The translations under genes were made by a program, and so were the position numbers. Of a stretch of DNA of 64,000 bases, positions 10,937 to 44,132 are shown piece after piece. The DNA is from Minisyncoccota bacterium (GTDB lineage: Bacteria; Patescibacteriota; Minisyncoccia; SW-4-49-11): contig JAULZW010000005.1 of assembly GCA_032117235.1 (NCBI GenBank), positions 31,264-95,263 of the forward strand, in the 5' to 3' direction. The notes beneath the pieces are model-generated. The model was given only the letters and a program-made list of their open reading frames with translations. It made no database searches and was not told the DNA's origin. Every line of letters begins with the position of its first letter. Within the stretch, counting starts at the first letter, position 1.

Positions 10937-11014
10937 TGGAGCCAATGGTGGGGATCGAACCCACGACCTATGCGTTACGAATGCATTGCTCTACCAGAAC
11001 TAAGCTACATTGGC
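10937..11014 (-). tRNA. tRNA-Thr (anticodon CGU), CCA encoded
   Basis: The reverse complement folds into a cloverleaf with a 7-bp acceptor stem GCCAATG/CATTGGC, T-loop TTCGATC and anticodon loop TTCGTAA with U33 and A37. One A-C mismatch closes the anticodon stem. The 3' end is TCCA. Confidence 0.88.
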
Positions 11015-26320: not shown

Positions 26321-27535
26321 TTATATTTGATCAAATTTAACTATTTCTCCATTGATCTCCACTCCATTTTGAGATAGTGTTTTAGAGCTAATAATAACTC
26401 TTTTATTAATTCCTAATAAGTCAGCTTCTGCAAACTTTACTCCAGGTCTTTCATTGCGATTATCAAATAAAACAGTTTGGTTGTTGCTTTGAATTTGCAG
26501 GTATAATTCTTCGGCTTTTCTCATAACATCCTCAGAGTCTGTATTTAAGGCAATAAGATGAATACGGAATGGAGTAACTGATTCTGGCCATATCATTTTA
26601 GACTCATTTTCAGCAAAAACTTCTACCAAAGTTCCCATTAATCTAGAAATTCCAATTCCATAACATCCCATAATTACTGGTTTATTAAACCCATTTTCAT
26701 CAGTAAACTCCAAATTAAATGCCTCAGAGTATTTTGTTTCTAATTTAAATATGTTTCCAACCTCAATAGACTGCTTTTGAATTAAGTTAGAATTATTACA
26801 TTCAGGACAAGTTTTTTGTTCCTCTATAATTTCTTTATTTATAGCAATATTACATTTTTCACATATAAAAATTGTATCTTCTCCGATATCAGATACAGTC
26901 TGGAACTCATGTGAATATTTGCTAAATGTGCCACCAGAAGCATAAGTTTTAAAAGTTATATCTCCGATACCAAGTCTTTTATAAATATTGATATAGGCTT
27001 GAGTTGCAAGTTCATAATATCTATCTAAATCTGCAGAGGAGCTGTGGAAAGAATATAGATCTTTCATAATAAATTCTCTACCTCTTAAAATTCCTGATTT
27101 AGCTCTTTTTTCGTCTCTAAACTTAGTTTGAATTTGATAAGCAGCTAAAGGTAAATCTTGATATGACTGAATAAAGTTTTTCGCAATAGGTGTTATAATT
27201 TCTTCGTGAGTAGATCCTAGCGCTAGCTCTGTTGAAGTATAGTAAGAAGTAAATTTGTATAATACATCTAAACTATTCCATCTACCAGTCTTTTCCCAAT
27301 AAGATTTTGGTTGAAGCGCTGGCAATAATAATTCTTGGGCTGAGATTTTGCTTAACTCTTCTCTTACTATATTCTCTATGTTTTTTATGACACGATACCC
27401 TAAAGGTAAATAAGCATAAACACCAGCCATAACTTGTTCTATATACCCAGCTTTGATTAAAATTTTAGCATTTAGGGATTCTTCTGTTTGAGAGATTTGT
27501 TTTCTAGTTTTGGAAATTAGGTTAGACTGATACAT
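26321..27535 (-). CDS. proS: prolyl-tRNA synthetase, minimal form lacking the INS editing domain
   Basis: Class II motif 1 LLPALQPKSYWEKTGRW, motif 2 FRDEKRAKSGILRGREFIMKDLYSF and motif 3 GCYGIGISRLMG. A C-terminal anticodon-binding domain is present. Between motifs 2 and 3 there are only about 33 aa (CEKC...CPEC), not the roughly 180-aa INS domain. Confidence 0.8.
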   Translation of the reverse strand: MYQSNLISKTRKQISQTEESLNAKILIKAGYIEQVMAGVYAYLPLGYRVIKNIENIVREELSKISAQELLLPALQPKSYWEKTGRWNSLDVLYKFTSYYTSTELALGSTHEEIITPIAKNFIQSYQDLPLAAYQIQTKFRDEKRAKSGILRGREFIMKDLYSFHSSSADLDRYYELATQAYINIYKRLGIGDITFKTYASGGTFSKYSHEFQTVSDIGEDTIFICEKCNIAINKEIIEEQKTCPECNNSNLIQKQSIEVGNIFKLETKYSEAFNLEFTDENGFNKPVIMGCYGIGISRLMGTLVEVFAENESKMIWPESVTPFRIHLIALNTDSEDVMRKAEELYLQIQSNNQTVLFDNRNERPGVKFAEADLLGINKRVIISSKTLSQNGVEINGEIVKFDQI

Positions 27536-27543
27536 ATTAAGAT

Positions 27544-28095
27544 TTAATTATTAAGTAATGCAGTAATTTTATTTTGAGGGAAATATTTCATAACAATATG
27601 CCAGACTGGTTTACGGTATTCATGTAGAAATTTCTCAATTTTATCTTGTGAAACCCATAAAAATCCACCCAACTCTCTACGGTCTACTTTAATTGACTGG
27701 GTGCTACCATTGTATTTAAGTAACATAATAGTTTGTTCTTGTCCTAAATTCTCGTCTCGAATAAGTCTCTTAGGGAAATAAAAGGTATGTTTTTCTGGGC
27801 ATTTATCTAAAATTGTAAAATCAGTAGTATTTAACTCCTCCCCCAACTCTCTTATAATTGCTTCCTCATTAGTTTCATTCTCATTAACTCCACCCTGAGG
27901 AAACTGCCAATGCAAAGGGTCATTTGCTCTAGATACAATTAATACATTTTCATCTTTATCAAATATTATTGCTAGTACATTTTTCCTTAGTTTACCATAG
28001 GACATATATTTTAAAATTAAACCATTATCATAATTATATGTATTATAGCTTATATTTAGTATTTTGTATACAACATAAGTATTTTTATTAGACAA
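27544..28095 (-). CDS. Nudix hydrolase
   Basis: Nudix box GGVNENETNEEAIIRELGEELN (G-x5-E-x7-REUxEExGU pattern). It sits 8 nt upstream of proS on the same strand. Confidence 0.8.
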   Translation of the reverse strand: MSNKNTYVVYKILNISYNTYNYDNGLILKYMSYGKLRKNVLAIIFDKDENVLIVSRANDPLHWQFPQGGVNENETNEEAIIRELGEELNTTDFTILDKCPEKHTFYFPKRLIRDENLGQEQTIMLLKYNGSTQSIKVDRRELGGFLWVSQDKIEKFLHEYRKPVWHIVMKYFPQNKITALLNN

Positions 28096-31570: not shown

Positions 31571-32329
31571 ATGGCTTACACCTTAGTTTTAATGCGACAT
31601 GGAGAAAGTTTATGGAATCAATTGGATAAATTTACTGGTTGGACAGATGTAGAGTTGTCTGACAAAGGTATTCAAGAAGCAAAAGCAGCAGGTTTAGTAT
31701 TGTTTCAAAATGGATTTGAATTTGATTTTGCATATACTTCCGTATTGGACAGAGCTATAGATACCTTGCAATATGTCTTAGAAGGAGCTCATATGACTTG
31801 GATTCCAGTTACAAAAGACTGGCACCTTAATGAAAGGCATTATGGAGGCTTACAGGGTAAAAATAAAGATGAAGCTGTAGATGAATTCGGTGAGTATCAA
31901 GTGAAAGTTTGGAGAAGGACATTTGCTATTAAGCCTCCATTGCTATCAGAATATGACTCTAGATATCCTGCTAATGATGATAGATATACTAACATACCAA
32001 CAGAACAGTTGCCTATTGGGGAATCTCTTAAAGATACTTTAGATAGAGTGCATCCGTATTGGGAGACAGAATTAAAGCCAGCTATTCTTTCTGGAAAAAG
32101 GCTTATTATATCAGCTCATGGCAATAGTTTAAGAGCTTTATTGAAGTTTTTAGAAAATATTTCAGATAAAAAAATTATTGATATAGAAATACCAACTGGT
32201 AATCCATTAATATATGAACTAGAAGAGAATACTTTAAAGGTTTTAAAAAAGTATTATTTAATGGGTAATACAATTAAAAATAATAAAAATATATTTAGTA
32301 AATTTAAATCTATTTTTAAATTAAATTAA
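31571..32329 (+). CDS. gpmA: 2,3-bisphosphoglycerate-dependent phosphoglycerate mutase
   Basis: Histidine phosphatase motif LMRHGESLWN, and a second His region ISAHGNSLRAL. Confidence 0.85.
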   Translation: MAYTLVLMRHGESLWNQLDKFTGWTDVELSDKGIQEAKAAGLVLFQNGFEFDFAYTSVLDRAIDTLQYVLEGAHMTWIPVTKDWHLNERHYGGLQGKNKDEAVDEFGEYQVKVWRRTFAIKPPLLSEYDSRYPANDDRYTNIPTEQLPIGESLKDTLDRVHPYWETELKPAILSGKRLIISAHGNSLRALLKFLENISDKKIIDIEIPTGNPLIYELEENTLKVLKKYYLMGNTIKNNKNIFSKFKSIFKLN

Positions 32330-32332
32330 ATT

Positions 32333-33013
32333 ATGTCAAAAATTATTTTAGTAAGACATGGAGATAGTCAATGGGACCAAGAAAATAGATATATAGGTTG
32401 GATAGATGTTCCTTTATTAGAACAAAGGGATGAATTAAAAAAAATTGGGAACACATTACTTAATAATAACACAGATATAGACATAATTATTACTTCAGTG
32501 CTAGAAAGATCAATTGTCAGTGCTTGGACTATTATGAACAGTATGTATCATTCCTGGATTCCAGAAATACATGACTGGAGATTAAACCCAAGACATTATG
32601 GAGTAATACAAGGTTTAACTTATCAAGATGTATTGGTAAAATATAATAATATTAACGAAATTAATCTGAGTTGGGATAAAACTGTTAGCCCAATTACATT
32701 AGATGATAAAAGTCATCCTAAGTATGATAGAAGATATGCTACTATATCGCCAGAGAGTTTACCTTCTGTGGAAAGTTTAAAGGATGTTTATGAAAGGGTG
32801 GAGAGTTTCATTGTAGATACATTATTACCTATTTTGTCTAGAAATGAGAATATTCTAATTGTAGCCCATCATGATAGTATAAGATCTATATTAAAATATT
32901 TTGAAAAATTATCGATTGAAGATACTATTAAATTTAATATTAATCCTTCTCAAGCTATAGTAATAAATTATGATTATAATACGGGCTTATCTACACAGAC
33001 AGTATTTGAATAG
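32333..33013 (+). CDS. histidine-phosphatase (dPGM-like) paralogue, divergent
   Basis: LVRHGDSQWDQENRYIGW and VAHHDSIRSI. It lies directly downstream of gpmA. Confidence 0.7.
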   Translation: MSKIILVRHGDSQWDQENRYIGWIDVPLLEQRDELKKIGNTLLNNNTDIDIIITSVLERSIVSAWTIMNSMYHSWIPEIHDWRLNPRHYGVIQGLTYQDVLVKYNNINEINLSWDKTVSPITLDDKSHPKYDRRYATISPESLPSVESLKDVYERVESFIVDTLLPILSRNENILIVAHHDSIRSILKYFEKLSIEDTIKFNINPSQAIVINYDYNTGLSTQTVFE

Positions 33014-33070: not shown

Positions 33071-36049
33071 ATGTATAACCACAGAACTATTGAACAAAAA
33101 TGGATTAAAAAATGGGCTGAAGGCTTTGTAGATTATAGGGTTGACAATGCTTCAGATAAAGAAAGTAAATATATTTTAGTTGAATTCCCTTTTCCTTCAG
33201 GTGCTGGACTTCATGTAGGACATATCCGTAGCTATGTAGCACAGGATATAAAGGCAAGAATGTATCGTATGCAGGGACAAAATGTACTTTATCCTCTAGG
33301 CTGGGATGCTTTTGGGCTACCAACAGAAAATTATGCTATTCAGAATAATATATCTCCTGTTATTGCAACAGAAAATAATATTAATACCTTCAAAAAACAA
33401 TTAGCATTATTAGGATTATCTTTTGATTGGAGTCGTGAAATTAATACTACTGATCCACAATATTATCGCTGGACGCAATGGATATGGCTACAAATGTATA
33501 AAGCTGGACTTGCTTATCAAGATACCACTAAGGTTTGGTGGTGTGATGAATTAAAAACTGTTCTTGCTAATGAAGAGGTTATTGATGGGAAATCAGAGCG
33601 TGGGGGATATCCTTGTGAGAGAGTGTCCTTAACACAATGGATGTTAGCAATTACCAAATATGCAGATAGATTGGATAAAGATTTAGATACTGTTGATTAT
33701 TTGCCCATTATCAAAACACAACAGAGAAATTGGATTGGTCGTAGTGAGGGAGTTCAATTAAAATTCCAAATTCTAGACTCAGATGCGTCTGTGGAAGTCT
33801 TTACTACTCGAATAGATACCGTATTTGGCGTTACCTTTTTGGTATTAGCACCAGAAAATCCAATTTTAGATAATATTGTAACAACAGAGTATAAGGAGGT
33901 AATACAAGCCTATCAAAAGCAAACGAAATCTAAAAGTGATTTAGATCGTCAGCAAGAAAAAGAAAAAACTGGAGTCTTTACGGGAACTTATGCTCTACAT
34001 CCATTAACAGGGGAGCAAATTCCTATTTGGACTGCCGATTATATATTAATGAATTATGGAACTGGAGCCGTAATGGCAGTACCTGCTCATGATGAGAGAG
34101 ACAGAGAATTTGCTGAAAAATTTGAATTACCTATTAAACAGGTAATTGCTGAATATGCTACTCTTACAGGGCAAGATGCTCCAAAGAGTGATGAAAATAT
34201 TATTAAGTTTGATGCAGCAACTGTAATTGTTAAACATTGGGAAGAAGAATTATATTATGTAATACAATTTAATGATGGACGAAATGGTTTTGTCGGGGGA
34301 CATGTTGAATTAGGTGAGACAACAGAAGAAACTGCAATTCGTGAGACGGCAGAAGAATCTAGATATGTAGATATTAAAAAGATTGAGCAGCTTATTGAGC
34401 ATGTATATAGTCGTGGTTATAAACATCGTAAATTGAGAGAGGAAGAATGTCATGATTCTCTATTTGTAGTAACATTAGGTAGTGACAAACAATTAGAGGT
34501 GATTGATGAGGAGACACAAAAAGGCCGTTGGGTGACTGCAGAAGAAATTATTAAATCAAGACTAGTAGATGACATATATCTATTCCAAACTTTTTTTGAA
34601 TATTATCTTAATCAAAAACCATTTACAGGGTATGGAAAACTTGTAAATTCAGATCAATTTGATGGATTATTCTCAGAAGAAGCTAAAGAATCACTTATTA
34701 CTATATTAGAAGAGAAAAATATCGGGCAAAGAAAAATTCAATATAAACTCCGAGATTGGGTATTCTCACGTCAGCGCTATTGGGGAGAACCTTTCCCTAT
34801 TGTTTGGATTAGCGAACAGTCCTATGGGCAAATATCAGATGAAATTACTGAGTTTCTACCAGCAAATCCTGTTACTCGACAAAAAAATAATAATACGGAA
34901 TATGCGGCTCCCTTGGCTCCTACAGAATTACCTCTCGAATTACCAGAAGTAGAATCATATATTCCACAAGGTTTGGGAGAAGGTCCTTTAGCTCAAACTA
35001 AAGATTGGGTAGAGATTTGGTATCATATTGAAACAGGAAAAACACTATCTCGTAGTGAAACTAAACCCGATGAGAATTGGGTAGAGGGTGTTAGAGAAAC
35101 TGATACTATGCCCAATTGGGCAGGAAGCTCTTGGTATTATCTTAGATATGCTGACCCTCATAATACTCAAGAATTAGCAAGCAAAGCTGCTTTAAAGCAA
35201 TGGCTACCAGTGGACTTATATAATGGGGGTATGGAGCAGGTAACTGTACATTTACTCTATTCTAGGTTTTGGCATAAATTCCTCTATGATATTGGTGTAG
35301 TCCCTACAATAGAGCCCTATCAGAAGCGCATTGCTCATGGAATGATTTTGGCTGAAGGAGGAGTTAAAATGTCAAAATCCAAAGGTAATACCGTGGATCC
35401 GGTAGAAATGGTAGAGTCATTTGGAGCAGATGCTCTCAGAATTTATGAGATGTTTATGGGACCTTATGATGAGGCAATTGCTTGGGATACAAGTGGTCTT
35501 ATTGGATGTAGTCGATTTTTGAAGCGAGTATATCAGTGGATTATGGATATGCAAACTCAAACATTAGAAAAAGCCGTAGACACAATCAAATTAGATTATG
35601 ATACCCATTTATTGATACGTAAAATTACTGAAGATATTGAAAATCAAAAATATAATACCTGTATTAGTAGTTTAATGGAATATCTCAATACCTATATTAA
35701 TAAAGATATTGGTATTGAGTATATTAAGATATATATTACTCTCTTAGCTCCATTTGCTCCACATATTGCGGAAGAATTATGGGAAATATTAGGGGAGAAA
35801 GAATCTGTGCATAAAGCTACTTGGCCACAATTTGATGAATCAAAATTAATTCAGACAGAAGTAGATTATCAAATTCATATTAATGGAAAAATGCGAGATA
35901 TTATTACCGTTAATGCGGAATTAGACAATGAGGCTATTCAACAAAAAGCTTTGGAATCATATAAAGTAAGTACTATTATCACGGATAAAAATACTATTAA
36001 GAAAATTATAGTAAATCAAACTAAAAAAATAGTTATAATTATAAGTTAG
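33071..36049 (+). CDS. leuS: leucyl-tRNA synthetase carrying an inserted Nudix hydrolase domain
   Basis: HVGH (HIGH) and KMSKS motifs. CP1 editing motifs TTRIDT (aa 247-252) and GTGAVMAVPAHDERD are intact. An extra domain of about 140 aa at aa 376-515 begins with a Nudix-type strand and carries the Nudix box GGHVELGETTEETAIRETAEESRY. Confidence 0.9.
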   Translation: MYNHRTIEQKWIKKWAEGFVDYRVDNASDKESKYILVEFPFPSGAGLHVGHIRSYVAQDIKARMYRMQGQNVLYPLGWDAFGLPTENYAIQNNISPVIATENNINTFKKQLALLGLSFDWSREINTTDPQYYRWTQWIWLQMYKAGLAYQDTTKVWWCDELKTVLANEEVIDGKSERGGYPCERVSLTQWMLAITKYADRLDKDLDTVDYLPIIKTQQRNWIGRSEGVQLKFQILDSDASVEVFTTRIDTVFGVTFLVLAPENPILDNIVTTEYKEVIQAYQKQTKSKSDLDRQQEKEKTGVFTGTYALHPLTGEQIPIWTADYILMNYGTGAVMAVPAHDERDREFAEKFELPIKQVIAEYATLTGQDAPKSDENIIKFDAATVIVKHWEEELYYVIQFNDGRNGFVGGHVELGETTEETAIRETAEESRYVDIKKIEQLIEHVYSRGYKHRKLREEECHDSLFVVTLGSDKQLEVIDEETQKGRWVTAEEIIKSRLVDDIYLFQTFFEYYLNQKPFTGYGKLVNSDQFDGLFSEEAKESLITILEEKNIGQRKIQYKLRDWVFSRQRYWGEPFPIVWISEQSYGQISDEITEFLPANPVTRQKNNNTEYAAPLAPTELPLELPEVESYIPQGLGEGPLAQTKDWVEIWYHIETGKTLSRSETKPDENWVEGVRETDTMPNWAGSSWYYLRYADPHNTQELASKAALKQWLPVDLYNGGMEQVTVHLLYSRFWHKFLYDIGVVPTIEPYQKRIAHGMILAEGGVKMSKSKGNTVDPVEMVESFGADALRIYEMFMGPYDEAIAWDTSGLIGCSRFLKRVYQWIMDMQTQTLEKAVDTIKLDYDTHLLIRKITEDIENQKYNTCISSLMEYLNTYINKDIGIEYIKIYITLLAPFAPHIAEELWEILGEKESVHKATWPQFDESKLIQTEVDYQIHINGKMRDIITVNAELDNEAIQQKALESYKVSTIITDKNTIKKIIVNQTKKIVIIIS

Positions 36050-41708: not shown

Positions 41709-44132
41709 ATGCTAACTTTTTTATATATTATTCTTTTAATTTGGATAATAGCAATGGTATTTATAATTTTTACTGTTATAATTCATCCATTTTGGGAAAA
41801 AAGAAGAGTTAATAGGGGGCTATCTATGACTCAATATCAGATTATTGTGCCAAGAAATATTCCTAATCCCGAAGCTAATATTAAAGATCTTATTAGTATA
41901 ATGGAGCAAGTTTATGCTGGATTTTCTTATCTTAAATTTGAAAGTTTTATTAATAGATTAAAATATGGTAATCCTTATATTTCTCTTGAAATTGTAAGTC
42001 CCACTGAAAGAGATGAAATAAATTTTTATATTGGTGTACCTAAGGGATATGAGTCTATCTTTGAAAAGCAAATTCATGGAGTGTATCCTGAGGCTGAATT
42101 AAAAAAAATTATAGATTATAATGTTTTAGTTCCAGGGTCTGAAGTTAGAGCTGGGTATCTTAAGTTAAAAAAACCTTATATTTTGCCAGTCAGAACTTAT
42201 AAAGAATTAGAAGCTAACCCTCTTAACGTTATTACTTCTGCCTTATCAAAAATTCAAGAAGATGAAAGTGCTGTAGTTCAAATTCTAATTCAAAGAGTAT
42301 CTGATAATTGGATTGATGATGGTAAAAAAGTGGTTAAAAAAATGCAAAAGGGGGAATCATTCAAGAACTCTTATAATGAAGTCTTTGGTAGTATAGATAA
42401 GCATTTTTTGAAAGCATTAGTTGAATTAACTAAATCTAAAAATTCTTCAGAAAATGAGTCTAAAATGCTTTTGCCCCAAGAGTCTATGATGTTGGAAAAA
42501 ATTAGTCAAAAAACTTCAAAAGTAGCATATGCTACTAATATTAGGCTTTTAACTATATCAAAAGATAAGCAGAGAGCAGACATTTTATTTGATCAATTAG
42601 AGGGGGCTTTCTCACAGTTTGCAAACGGAGATCTGAATGAATTTAAGGTGATAAAATATCCTAAACAAAATATTAAGCAATTTATATATACCTTTATTTT
42701 TAGATTATTTGATGAAAAAGAATCTATGATTTTAAATACAGAAGAGTTGACTAGTATATATCATATTCCAGCAGTAGGAGTGGAAACCCCTAAAGTTACT
42801 TGGATTACCTCTAAAACCTCTCATCCACCAGTAGATTTACCAAAAGAAGGCTTGTTGATAGGTAAAAATGTATATCGTGGTGAAGAATCTGAAGTTAGAA
42901 TTAAGCAAGAAGACCGTAGAAGGCATATGTATTTAATCGGGCAAACTGGTACTGGTAAAAGCTCTTTGATGAAAAAAATGATTCAAGAGGATTTGCAAGC
43001 TGGACACGGTTTGGCTTTGTTAGACCCAAATGGAGATTTTGCTGTTGAAGTTTTAGGTATGATACCGCCACATCGTATGGATGATGTAATCTATTTTAAC
43101 CCAGCTGACACAAATTATCCAATGGGACTTAATATTCTAGAAGCTCGTAGTCATGAAGAAAAAGACTTTTTAATTCAAGAAATGATTTCTATTTTCTATA
43201 AATTAGTTTCAGATCCTAGTATGATCGGTCCAATTTTCGAGCATAATATGCGAATGGCAATGTCAGCTTTGATGTCTGATGTAAATAATCCAAGAACTCT
43301 AGTAGAAATTCCTATGATGTTTACTGATGAAAATTTTCGCCGAGAAGTTTTGCTGACGGTTGACGATCCTGTTATTAGGCATTTTTGGGAGAAAGAATTT
43401 CCAGCCACTCAAAAAGGCTCACAAGCAGGAGATACTTTGGGATATCTCTTGAGTAAATTAGGTAGATTTATTGAAAATGAAATGGTTAGAAATATAATTG
43501 GGCAATCAAGGTCATCCTTTGATTTTCAAGACATTATGAATTCAGGTAAAATATTGATTGGAAATTTATCCAAAGGAGGGTTGGGTGAGCAAAATAGTAA
43601 CTTGTTAGGTATGTTATTAGTCTCCAAATTACAGATGGCAGCCTTTAAGCGAAATGAAATTCCAGAAGAACAGAGAGTAGATTTTTATCTATATTTGGAT
43701 GAGTTTCAAAACTTTACTACAGACAGTATTTCAACTATTTTGTCTGAGGCTCGTAAATATAGATTATGTTTGATTTTAGCTCATCAATATATAGGACAAT
43801 TATCTGATGGAATTCGTAATGCTGTCTTTGGAAATGTAGGGACGGTAGGGAGTTTTCGCATTAGCTCTGACGATGCTGAAATTATAGCTCAAAGAATGCA
43901 ACCATATTATACGGCTGAGGATTTAGTTTTAATAGATAACTTAAAGGCAGTTATAACATTGATGATTAATGGAAAAACTAGTAAAGCCTTTAATCTGGAA
44001 GTTATTTTTGCTGATAGGTCAAATTTAGCTTTGCAACAACAAGTAATAATGCAGTCAAGACAAAAATATGCCAATCCAGTAGCTGCAGTCAGGGCTGATA
44101 TTGAAAGTCGCACTCATAGTATGTTACAATAG
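41709..44132 (+). CDS. membrane-anchored P-loop ATPase of the VirB4/VirD4 (type IV secretion) superfamily, VirB3-VirB4-fusion-like
   Basis: N-terminal TM helix. Walker A YLIGQTGTGKSS near aa 410, Walker B DFYLYLDEFQNF and the C-terminal block EARKYRLCLILAHQYIGQL. 807 aa. Confidence 0.5.
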   Translation: MLTFLYIILLIWIIAMVFIIFTVIIHPFWEKRRVNRGLSMTQYQIIVPRNIPNPEANIKDLISIMEQVYAGFSYLKFESFINRLKYGNPYISLEIVSPTERDEINFYIGVPKGYESIFEKQIHGVYPEAELKKIIDYNVLVPGSEVRAGYLKLKKPYILPVRTYKELEANPLNVITSALSKIQEDESAVVQILIQRVSDNWIDDGKKVVKKMQKGESFKNSYNEVFGSIDKHFLKALVELTKSKNSSENESKMLLPQESMMLEKISQKTSKVAYATNIRLLTISKDKQRADILFDQLEGAFSQFANGDLNEFKVIKYPKQNIKQFIYTFIFRLFDEKESMILNTEELTSIYHIPAVGVETPKVTWITSKTSHPPVDLPKEGLLIGKNVYRGEESEVRIKQEDRRRHMYLIGQTGTGKSSLMKKMIQEDLQAGHGLALLDPNGDFAVEVLGMIPPHRMDDVIYFNPADTNYPMGLNILEARSHEEKDFLIQEMISIFYKLVSDPSMIGPIFEHNMRMAMSALMSDVNNPRTLVEIPMMFTDENFRREVLLTVDDPVIRHFWEKEFPATQKGSQAGDTLGYLLSKLGRFIENEMVRNIIGQSRSSFDFQDIMNSGKILIGNLSKGGLGEQNSNLLGMLLVSKLQMAAFKRNEIPEEQRVDFYLYLDEFQNFTTDSISTILSEARKYRLCLILAHQYIGQLSDGIRNAVFGNVGTVGSFRISSDDAEIIAQRMQPYYTAEDLVLIDNLKAVITLMINGKTSKAFNLEVIFADRSNLALQQQVIMQSRQKYANPVAAVRADIESRTHSMLQ

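Follow-up and report, generated by a model that had tools for sequence, protein, structure and literature searches.

The gene for leucyl-tRNA synthetase (leuS) of a Minisyncoccota bacterium was found to contain a complete Nudix domain, inserted in frame into CP1, the editing domain of the enzyme. The gene lies in a 64,000-nucleotide (nt) stretch of contig JAULZW010000005.1, referred to as the window, where it occupies positions 33071 to 36049 of the forward strand, the strand on which all parts of leuS given below are located. It forms a single uninterrupted open reading frame (ORF) of 992 amino acids (aa) and specifies a bacterial-type leucyl-tRNA synthetase (LeuRS). The Nudix insert proper comprises aa 360-518 (34148..34624) and replaces the I4b loop of CP1, which corresponds to residues 364-377 of the T. 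thermophilus enzyme. In the reading favoured here, whose chances we judge to be evenly balanced, the insert would be an autonomous, probably active Nudix pyrophosphohydrolase carried by LeuRS as an optional accessory.

Identity and fold of the domain are supported by several comparisons. The Pfam family NUDIX (PF00293) matched aa 394-494 with 45.9 bits and an E-value of 7e-12 when the whole protein was searched (gathering threshold 21.1), and the excised segment reached 49.6 bits. The match to the LeuRS editing domain (PF13603, 216 bits) was split around the insert, with profile positions 1-144 ending at aa 363 and positions 150-177 following after the insert. Modelled alone by AF2, the insert obtained a predicted local distance difference test score (pLDDT) of 89.3; within the full-length model, pLDDT values were 76-94 per block of ten residues and the secondary structure was the same. 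The model displays the alpha/beta/alpha sandwich by which the Nudix superfamily is defined. A profile of the insert family matched 164 Nudix chains in the PDB. Ap4A/Ap6A hydrolases and RppH were among the profile and fold matches but did not stand out from NudI, NudF, or NudC; the decapping effector AvrM14 was matched as well. A complete Nudix domain within LeuS had been proposed in an earlier interpretation made without database searches (the sequence-only reading), and these results bear it out. Its boundaries had to be revised. The insert extends from aa 360 to about aa 518 and measures about 157-159 aa instead of roughly 140 (aa 376-515). The additional N-terminal residues, aa 360-380, are conserved, belong to the Nudix domain, and are also found in stand-alone members of the family.

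The Nudix box of the insert reads G410-x5-E416-x7-R424-E425-T-A-E428-E429-S-R431-Y432 and is encoded at 34298..34366, three nucleotides downstream of the position assigned to it in the sequence-only reading (34295-34363), since the box starts at aa 410 and not at aa 409. Compared with the consensus GX5EX7REUXEEXGU, G410, E416, R424, E425, E428, E429, and Y432 match, the U position following E425 is occupied by Thr, and the penultimate Gly is replaced by Arg431 (AGA codon, 34361..34363). The box of this copy, described before as near-consensus, is thus not perfectly canonical, the Gly of the EExGU element being absent. Among 59 orthologous inserts, G410, E425, E428, and E429 are invariant, while R424 is present in 54, E416 in 51, and the box Gly in 57 of them; the only Arg at this position is that of the window, whose orthologues show the full Nudix box consensus. 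In a representative set of the whole family, the three core glutamates (E425, E428, E429) were detected in 157 of 168 domains, and three of the 11 exceptions are truncated. Gly was found at position 431 in 159 of 164 family domains and Arg in none. As the catalytic glutamates of Nudix enzymes are conserved across the family, its members are likely to be catalytically competent hydrolases, with a question mark over the copy of the window. The activity of this copy may be altered or reduced by the rare Gly431Arg replacement. Arg431 was seen in the window genome only and may reflect loss or change of activity in this lineage, or else a variant introduced by sequencing or assembly.

The LeuRS harboring the insert is itself intact and under strong constraint. 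It matched the NCBIfam model for bacterial LeuRS (TIGR00396, leuS_bact) with 917.3 bits (cutoff 548.4), in three stretches separated by the insert. The full-length model had a pLDDT of 88.5 and a predicted template modelling (TM) score of 0.79, and superimposed on the LeuRS structures of T. thermophilus and E. coli with a TM score of 0.83, the insert lying outside the superposition. Residues H48, G50, and H51 of the HIGH motif (H48-V-G-H51, 33212..33223) as well as K766, M767, K769, and S770 of the KMSKS motif (aa 766-770, 35366..35380) are invariant in an alignment of 63 LeuRS sequences. The N-terminal part of CP1 covers aa 219-359 (33725..34147; PF13603 positions 1-144 correspond to aa 219-363) and includes the T-rich motif T245-T250 (33803-33820) and the GTG...AHDERD region (aa 330-344, 34058-34102). 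Its C-terminal part, aa 519-557 (34625..34741), begins where the PF13603 match resumes (profile positions 150-177) and leads back to the catalytic core at YKLRDW. The editing residues T245, T246, R247, D249, T250, D341, and D344 are invariant in the 63 sequences regardless of whether the insert is present. Intact HIGH and KMSKS motifs and an intact editing site had been noted before and were confirmed, except that the TTRIDT sequence is located at aa 245-250 and not at aa 247-252. Two differences from the T. thermophilus enzyme were observed outside the insert. Its residues from about 582 to 636, which we take to be the leucine-specific domain, lie just before KMSKS and have no counterpart in the window LeuRS (around 35360-35370, aa 763-766), while aa 582-673 of the window LeuRS are about 40 residues longer than the equivalent residues 441-491.

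For localization of the insert, the protein was aligned over its full length to T. thermophilus LeuRS (1h3n; E 4e-191). The residues bordering the insert, aa 360 and aa 519, correspond to residues 363 and 378, so that a 14-residue segment within CP1, 364-377, is replaced, and downstream of the insert aa 519-581 align to residues 378-440. The T-rich motif and both Asp residues line up with their counterparts in the S. pneumoniae numbering of a structural study of CP1 (PMC3747510). In that study, I4b was described as 'a long loop between alpha2 and alpha3' of CP1 that is not conserved among bacteria, with Thr373 (S. pneumoniae numbering) about 4 A from the ligand in the editing pocket, and its archaeal/eukaryal counterpart I4ae was reported to cover the opening of the pocket. 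From the alignment to 1h3n and this definition of I4b, the Nudix domain is located within I4b, on the rim of the editing pocket, and not near the aminoacylation site. The point between alpha2 and alpha3 had thus already been described as variable between species (PMC3747510), but while I4b is a loop and I4ae a helix, the window LeuRS carries a globular enzyme domain with a catalytic motif of its own at the same place.

Other explanations for the insertion itself were also considered. An intein or other self-splicing element was rejected, since no intein or Hint family was among the Pfam matches and the junctions (...KQVI|AEY... and ...FTGYG|KLVNS) lack the Cys/Ser...His-Asn-Cys/Ser/Thr signature. 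An origin from a mobile element was likewise dismissed, as no target-site duplication was detected at the insert junctions. An assembly chimera does not account for the architecture, which recurs in many independent assemblies and sources; a single 90% cluster (P0009) is indexed in 29 collection blocks.

In the survey of orthologues that had been proposed earlier, 59 of the 120 best-matching LeuRS homologues proved to carry an insert at this site, about 157-160 aa long. The carriers have 203-220 residues between reference aa 350 and 560, the remaining homologues 52-66. In a scan of one genome per species, the insert was found in metagenome-assembled genomes (MAGs) labelled Paceibacteria, Parcubacteria, Adlerbacteria, Kaiserbacteria, Gracilibacteria, Moranbacteria, Nomurabacteria, and Saccharimonadales, the closest match being a Paceibacteria-labelled MAG with 84% identity, which stems from a freshwater metagenome time series. 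The insert is therefore distributed across Patescibacteria, and the earlier statement that no aminoacyl-tRNA synthetase with an embedded Nudix domain is known needs correction, as dozens of LeuRS entries in sequence databases carry one.

To this survey, a profile search of 1.84 billion cluster representatives was added, which yielded 183 hits at E<=1e-30. LeuRS similarity was detected in 114 of the top 149 representatives, and about 22 of the 149 are proteins of 154-206 aa without such similarity. These stand-alone relatives start with Met and share with the insert the conserved N-terminal extension, which accounts for the first 20 residues of the latter. So far, the Nudix subfamily has been seen almost only in Patescibacteria and mostly within LeuRS. 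Some LeuRS proteins contain two or three copies, the additional ones being located near the N-terminal boundary of CP1 or before the anticodon-binding domain, and other loops of patescibacterial LeuRS house a HAD phosphatase, a Ham1-type domain, or an alpha/beta serine hydrolase. LeuRS apparently serves as a scaffold to which hydrolase domains are added. In related LeuRS proteins, HAD_2 or Ham1 domains were observed near the CP1 start after reference aa ~234-238, the serine or alpha/beta hydrolase after aa ~590-611, and a Nudix domain after aa ~836; as many as three Nudix copies occur in one protein. Related LeuRS proteins with such further nested domains are P0027, P0048, P0071, P0067, P0070, P0103, P0116, P0121, P0122, P0131, and P0154.

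In a neighbour-joining tree calculated from 768 core columns, a large distant clade was almost uniformly insert-positive. In the close clade of the window sequence (core identity >76%) the insert was distributed patchily, sequences with and without it being nearest neighbours. This presence/absence dimorphism was compared at the DNA level in two pairs of long and short forms. In the first pair, the neighbouring genes are the same, and those upstream and immediately downstream are at identical coordinates; L001 specifies a LeuRS of 832 aa without the insert and L003 one of 989 aa with it. Flanking sequences of about 7 kb are 99.1% identical on one side and 98.6% on the other. The non-homologous block between them measures 99 nt in L001 and 570 nt in L003, and single-nucleotide polymorphisms concentrate within about 500 nt of it. 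In the second pair (L042 and L043), the upstream regions are 99-100% identical, identity drops from 0.94 to 0.75 near the junction, and the downstream region shows 93.9%. Long and short forms therefore represent alleles of a single orthologous gene; paralogy was rejected for the pairs examined, in which both forms occupy the same syntenic locus. Upstream of leuS, RecA and two His_Phos_1 genes are common to the window and to P0014, a relative without the insert (90.5% core identity); the genes downstream of leuS differ between them.

The allele type was also apparent in the sequences bordering the insert. Within the close clade, mean core identity is equal for long/long, short/short, and long/short pairs (0.85-0.87 and 0.77-0.79), whereas in the 20 residues before and the 31 residues after the insert long/long pairs reach 0.85 and 0.84 and long/short pairs only 0.64 and 0.46. 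The flanks co-vary with the allele type, the core does not. Synonymous divergence (dS) of the insert is uncoupled from that of the core: for L003 and L006, values of 0.08 for the insert and 1.1-1.4 for the core were obtained, for the window and L005 0.31 and 0.9-1.7, and for L005 and L006 0.72 and 0.41-0.56. Sliding windows revealed tracts of 92-100% identity amid a background of 70-78%. In a comparison of the window, L003, L005, and L006, two or three discrete variants each were observed for the insert segments aa 396-409, 410-433, and 471-510, with 40-50% identity between variants, which combine to at least four haplotypes. The insert of the window is itself a recombinant. Near-identical flanks, decay of identity towards the junctions, uncoupled dS, and mosaicism demonstrate a cassette of about 0.5-0.6 kb that LeuRS function does not require and that has moved by homologous recombination via the conserved leuS flanks, in, out, and between lineages. 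As judged from flank co-variation, identity decay, and mosaics, the recombining long-allele cassette covers aa ~350-556 (34118..34738); besides the Nudix insert, it includes about 10 aa of the sequence to its left and about 30 aa of that to its right.

Selection on the insert was estimated from ratios of nonsynonymous to synonymous substitutions (dN/dS) according to Nei and Gojobori. In most pairs, dN/dS was 0.31-0.46 for the insert and 0.09-0.18 for the LeuRS core. The insert is therefore under purifying, but clearly relaxed, selection.

Both parents of the architecture, bacterial LeuRS and the Nudix superfamily, are well known, and aminoacyl-tRNA synthetases are known to accrete domains. With bacterial LeuRS containing CP1 (T. 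thermophilus 1h3n/2bte; E. coli 4aq7), the window protein shares homology over the full length, the HIGH and KMSKS motifs, the T-rich motif, and the catalytic Asp. No solved LeuRS structure has a nested enzyme domain, however, whereas in the window protein about 158 aa take the place of the 14-residue loop 364-377. Single-domain Nudix proteins of the MutT, NudI, Ap(n)A hydrolase, and RppH types (2azw, 3oga, 1vc8, 4ilq, 3i7u, 7sp3) are 15-25% identical to the insert, which differs from them by its conserved N-terminal extension and by being mostly nested in LeuRS. Among enzymes of mixed composition, weak NCBIfam matches were obtained to an isoleucyl-tRNA synthetase (IleRS) with a GNAT domain (NF040702), another tRNA synthetase with a small-molecule-modifying domain, and to the bifunctional NMN adenylyltransferase/Nudix hydrolase NadM-Nudix (NF003785), a nucleotidyltransferase joined to a Nudix domain, whose structure (PDB 2qjt) was also among the structural neighbours. 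NadM-Nudix couples adenylyl transfer with ADP-ribose hydrolysis, but its domains are arranged end to end and not nested. We know of no behaviour as a presence/absence cassette for NadM-Nudix or IleRS-GNAT.

If the favoured reading is correct, the insert would be a complete, autonomous Nudix pyrophosphohydrolase of about 160 aa, nested in I4b of CP1, and its substrate would be a nucleotide pyrophosphate. The best guess are dinucleoside polyphosphates such as Ap4A, or other nucleotide by-products. This guess is based on the likeness to Ap(n)A hydrolases and RppH, on the theme of nucleotide hydrolysis among the other nested domains, and on the RppH-like Nudix gene beside the prolyl-tRNA synthetase (ProRS) gene proS in the window. 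Clearing of Ap4A or a related alarmone by the insert, which had also been suggested in the sequence-only reading, is plausible, the likeness to Ap4A/Ap6A hydrolases and to RppH being generic. The tether to LeuRS would serve co-localisation or co-expression and would not take part in the chemistry of aminoacylation or proofreading. The cassette is swapped by homologous recombination through the leuS flanks, the insert being mosaic itself. Several observations weigh against this assignment. None of the NCBIfam Nudix equivalogs, RppH, MutT, and NudI among them, reached its cutoff, all scores being far below. For the RppH equivalogs (NF001934-NF001938, cutoffs 116-259), no hit was among the matches of the whole protein, and the excised insert obtained 14.2 bits and other family members 19-40 bits. 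The structural neighbours spread over many specificities. Constraint on the insert is weak, with dN/dS three to four times as high as in the core and, on small counts, about 0.6-1.0 in the pair that diverged most recently, and Arg431 of the window replaces a Gly kept in about 97% of the family. To our knowledge, LeuRS is not a prominent producer of Ap4A, and a generic house-cleaning role therefore leaves the preference of the subfamily for LeuRS unexplained.

This preference is also the point at which another explanation has to be judged, according to which the insert is a pure passenger, an ordinary house-cleaning Nudix enzyme nested in an essential constitutive gene of a streamlined genome and without link to LeuRS. 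Its spread would then reflect tolerance of I4b plus recombination. Dispensability in loci with about 99% identical flanks, relaxed selection, the peripheral position and lack of conservation of I4b (PMC3747510), unrelated HAD, Ham1, and alpha/beta-hydrolase domains nested at other LeuRS loops, and the existence of stand-alone homologues all agree with a passenger. That the subfamily is overwhelmingly embedded in LeuRS (114/149 representatives), and that insertion occurred repeatedly, at several LeuRS sites and in two to three copies, is hard to explain without some LeuRS-specific benefit, and we regard a pure passenger as rather unlikely. A non-catalytic structural or regulatory module, for instance one that caps the editing pocket, senses a ligand there, or offers an extra surface for tRNA binding, would also make use of the location, which is that of I4ae, the element covering the pocket opening (PMC3747510). 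Relaxed constraint and the non-consensus Arg431 in the copy of the window would be compatible with a non-catalytic domain, but three glutamates in 157/168 domains and the box Gly in 159/164 are not expected for a purely structural module, and stand-alone family members exist as well; such a role is considered improbable.

Possible targets other than free nucleotides were also weighed. The domain might be directed at RNA or tRNA ends in biological conflict, acting at the rim of the A76-binding pocket on 3'-pyrophosphorylated or ADP-ribosylated CCA ends or on NAD/Np4A caps, with the alleles being kept by toxin or phage conflict. Arguments for it are the location of I4b beside the editing pocket, the best, although sub-threshold, NCBIfam similarity of family members, which is to RppH RNA pyrophosphohydrolases, profile and fold matches to RppH, NudC, and AvrM14, and the HAD phosphatase inserts in sister LeuRS; in its dimorphism, horizontal exchange, and discrete segment variants, the cassette is also reminiscent of conflict loci. 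PADLOC and PHROGs, however, gave generic Nudix similarity and no specific defence-system or phage family, no toxin or phage gene was seen at the leuS locus, and overall dN/dS is below 1; this explanation is considered unlikely. A broader version is regarded as improbable as well. It holds that the insert, placed where the CP1 pocket for the tRNA 3' end opens, serves repair or immunity and is driven by conflict, removing pyrophosphate-linked lesions from tRNA-Leu or LeuRS-bound nucleotides, that the alleles are under toxin/phage balancing selection, and that patescibacterial LeuRS is a docking platform for interchangeable hydrolase cassettes (one to three Nudix, HAD, Ham1, and alpha/beta-hydrolase domains). 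The lesions would in this case be toxin-installed 3'-pyrophosphate or ADP-ribose, or nucleotide-type LeuRS poisons. Tethered pre-transfer proofreading, that is hydrolysis of misactivated aminoacyl-adenylates, was the main idea of the sequence-only reading and is hardly tenable. Nudix enzymes cleave pyrophosphate linkages in nucleoside-diphosphate-X compounds, and acyl-adenylates have none. Moreover, the domain hangs off CP1 and not off the synthetic site, and closely related genomes manage without it at loci with near-identical flanks while the LeuRS core is strongly constrained. Proofreading by the insert is thus unsupported; its co-residence with an adenylate-forming enzyme is the sole argument for it, and the residues for post-transfer editing in CP1 are intact whether the insert is present or not.

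A number of observations were made in the surroundings of leuS. Two tandem paralogues of the His_Phos_1 family (phosphoglycerate-mutase-like; 31571-33013, +) are located immediately upstream, and this arrangement recurs in each of the related loci that were inspected. An ORF of 807 aa (41709-44132, +), which follows leuS at a distance of a few kb, corresponds in position and length to a gene of L001 and L003 that contains DUF8128, DUF87, and TrwB/TraG-like ATPase domains, a signature resembling type IV secretion or coupling proteins. The stand-alone RppH-like Nudix gene (27544-28095, -) specifies 183 aa and scores 90 bits with the NCBIfam RppH model (cutoff 118). As a source of the insert it was rejected, as it is RppH-like and the two are 25% identical. 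It is separated by 8 nt from proS, which encodes a short ProRS of 404 aa (26321-27535, -), and constitutes a second neighbourhood of Nudix and aminoacyl-tRNA synthetase genes in the genome. The stand-alone homologue of the insert subfamily P0155 is encoded two genes downstream of the ProRS gene in L040. Searching the 64 kb window with Rfam revealed a single tRNA, Thr-CGT (10937-11014, -), and no other family at threshold. The GC content is about 30-35% over the 30-39 kb stretch profiled, consistent with a streamlined genome of Patescibacteria.

Aminoacyl-tRNA synthetases are a textbook case of gain of function by domain addition. That the editing domain of a bacterial LeuRS houses a second enzyme, seemingly an active one, is apparently undescribed in the literature searched: no paper on a LeuRS-Nudix or other synthetase-Nudix architecture was found in open-access literature, which is absence of evidence and not proof. 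The architecture is visible in automated Pfam annotation of many metagenomic proteins but appears to be unstudied. The weight of the window itself is limited, being one of many carriers and containing an atypical Nudix-box residue. For an essential housekeeping gene, a dimorphism of long and short alleles is unusual in which an entire catalytic domain, internally mosaic, has been exchanged among species as well as among loci whose flanks are about 99% identical. The two types of alleles provide a natural experiment, with and without the domain, on its role, and I4b is marked as a tolerant insertion site for protein engineering. Nudix-in-LeuRS is widespread in Patescibacteria, which represent a large and poorly understood share of bacterial diversity, and in these ultra-small bacteria it could connect translation in a new way with the metabolism of nucleotides or alarmones, or with molecular conflict.

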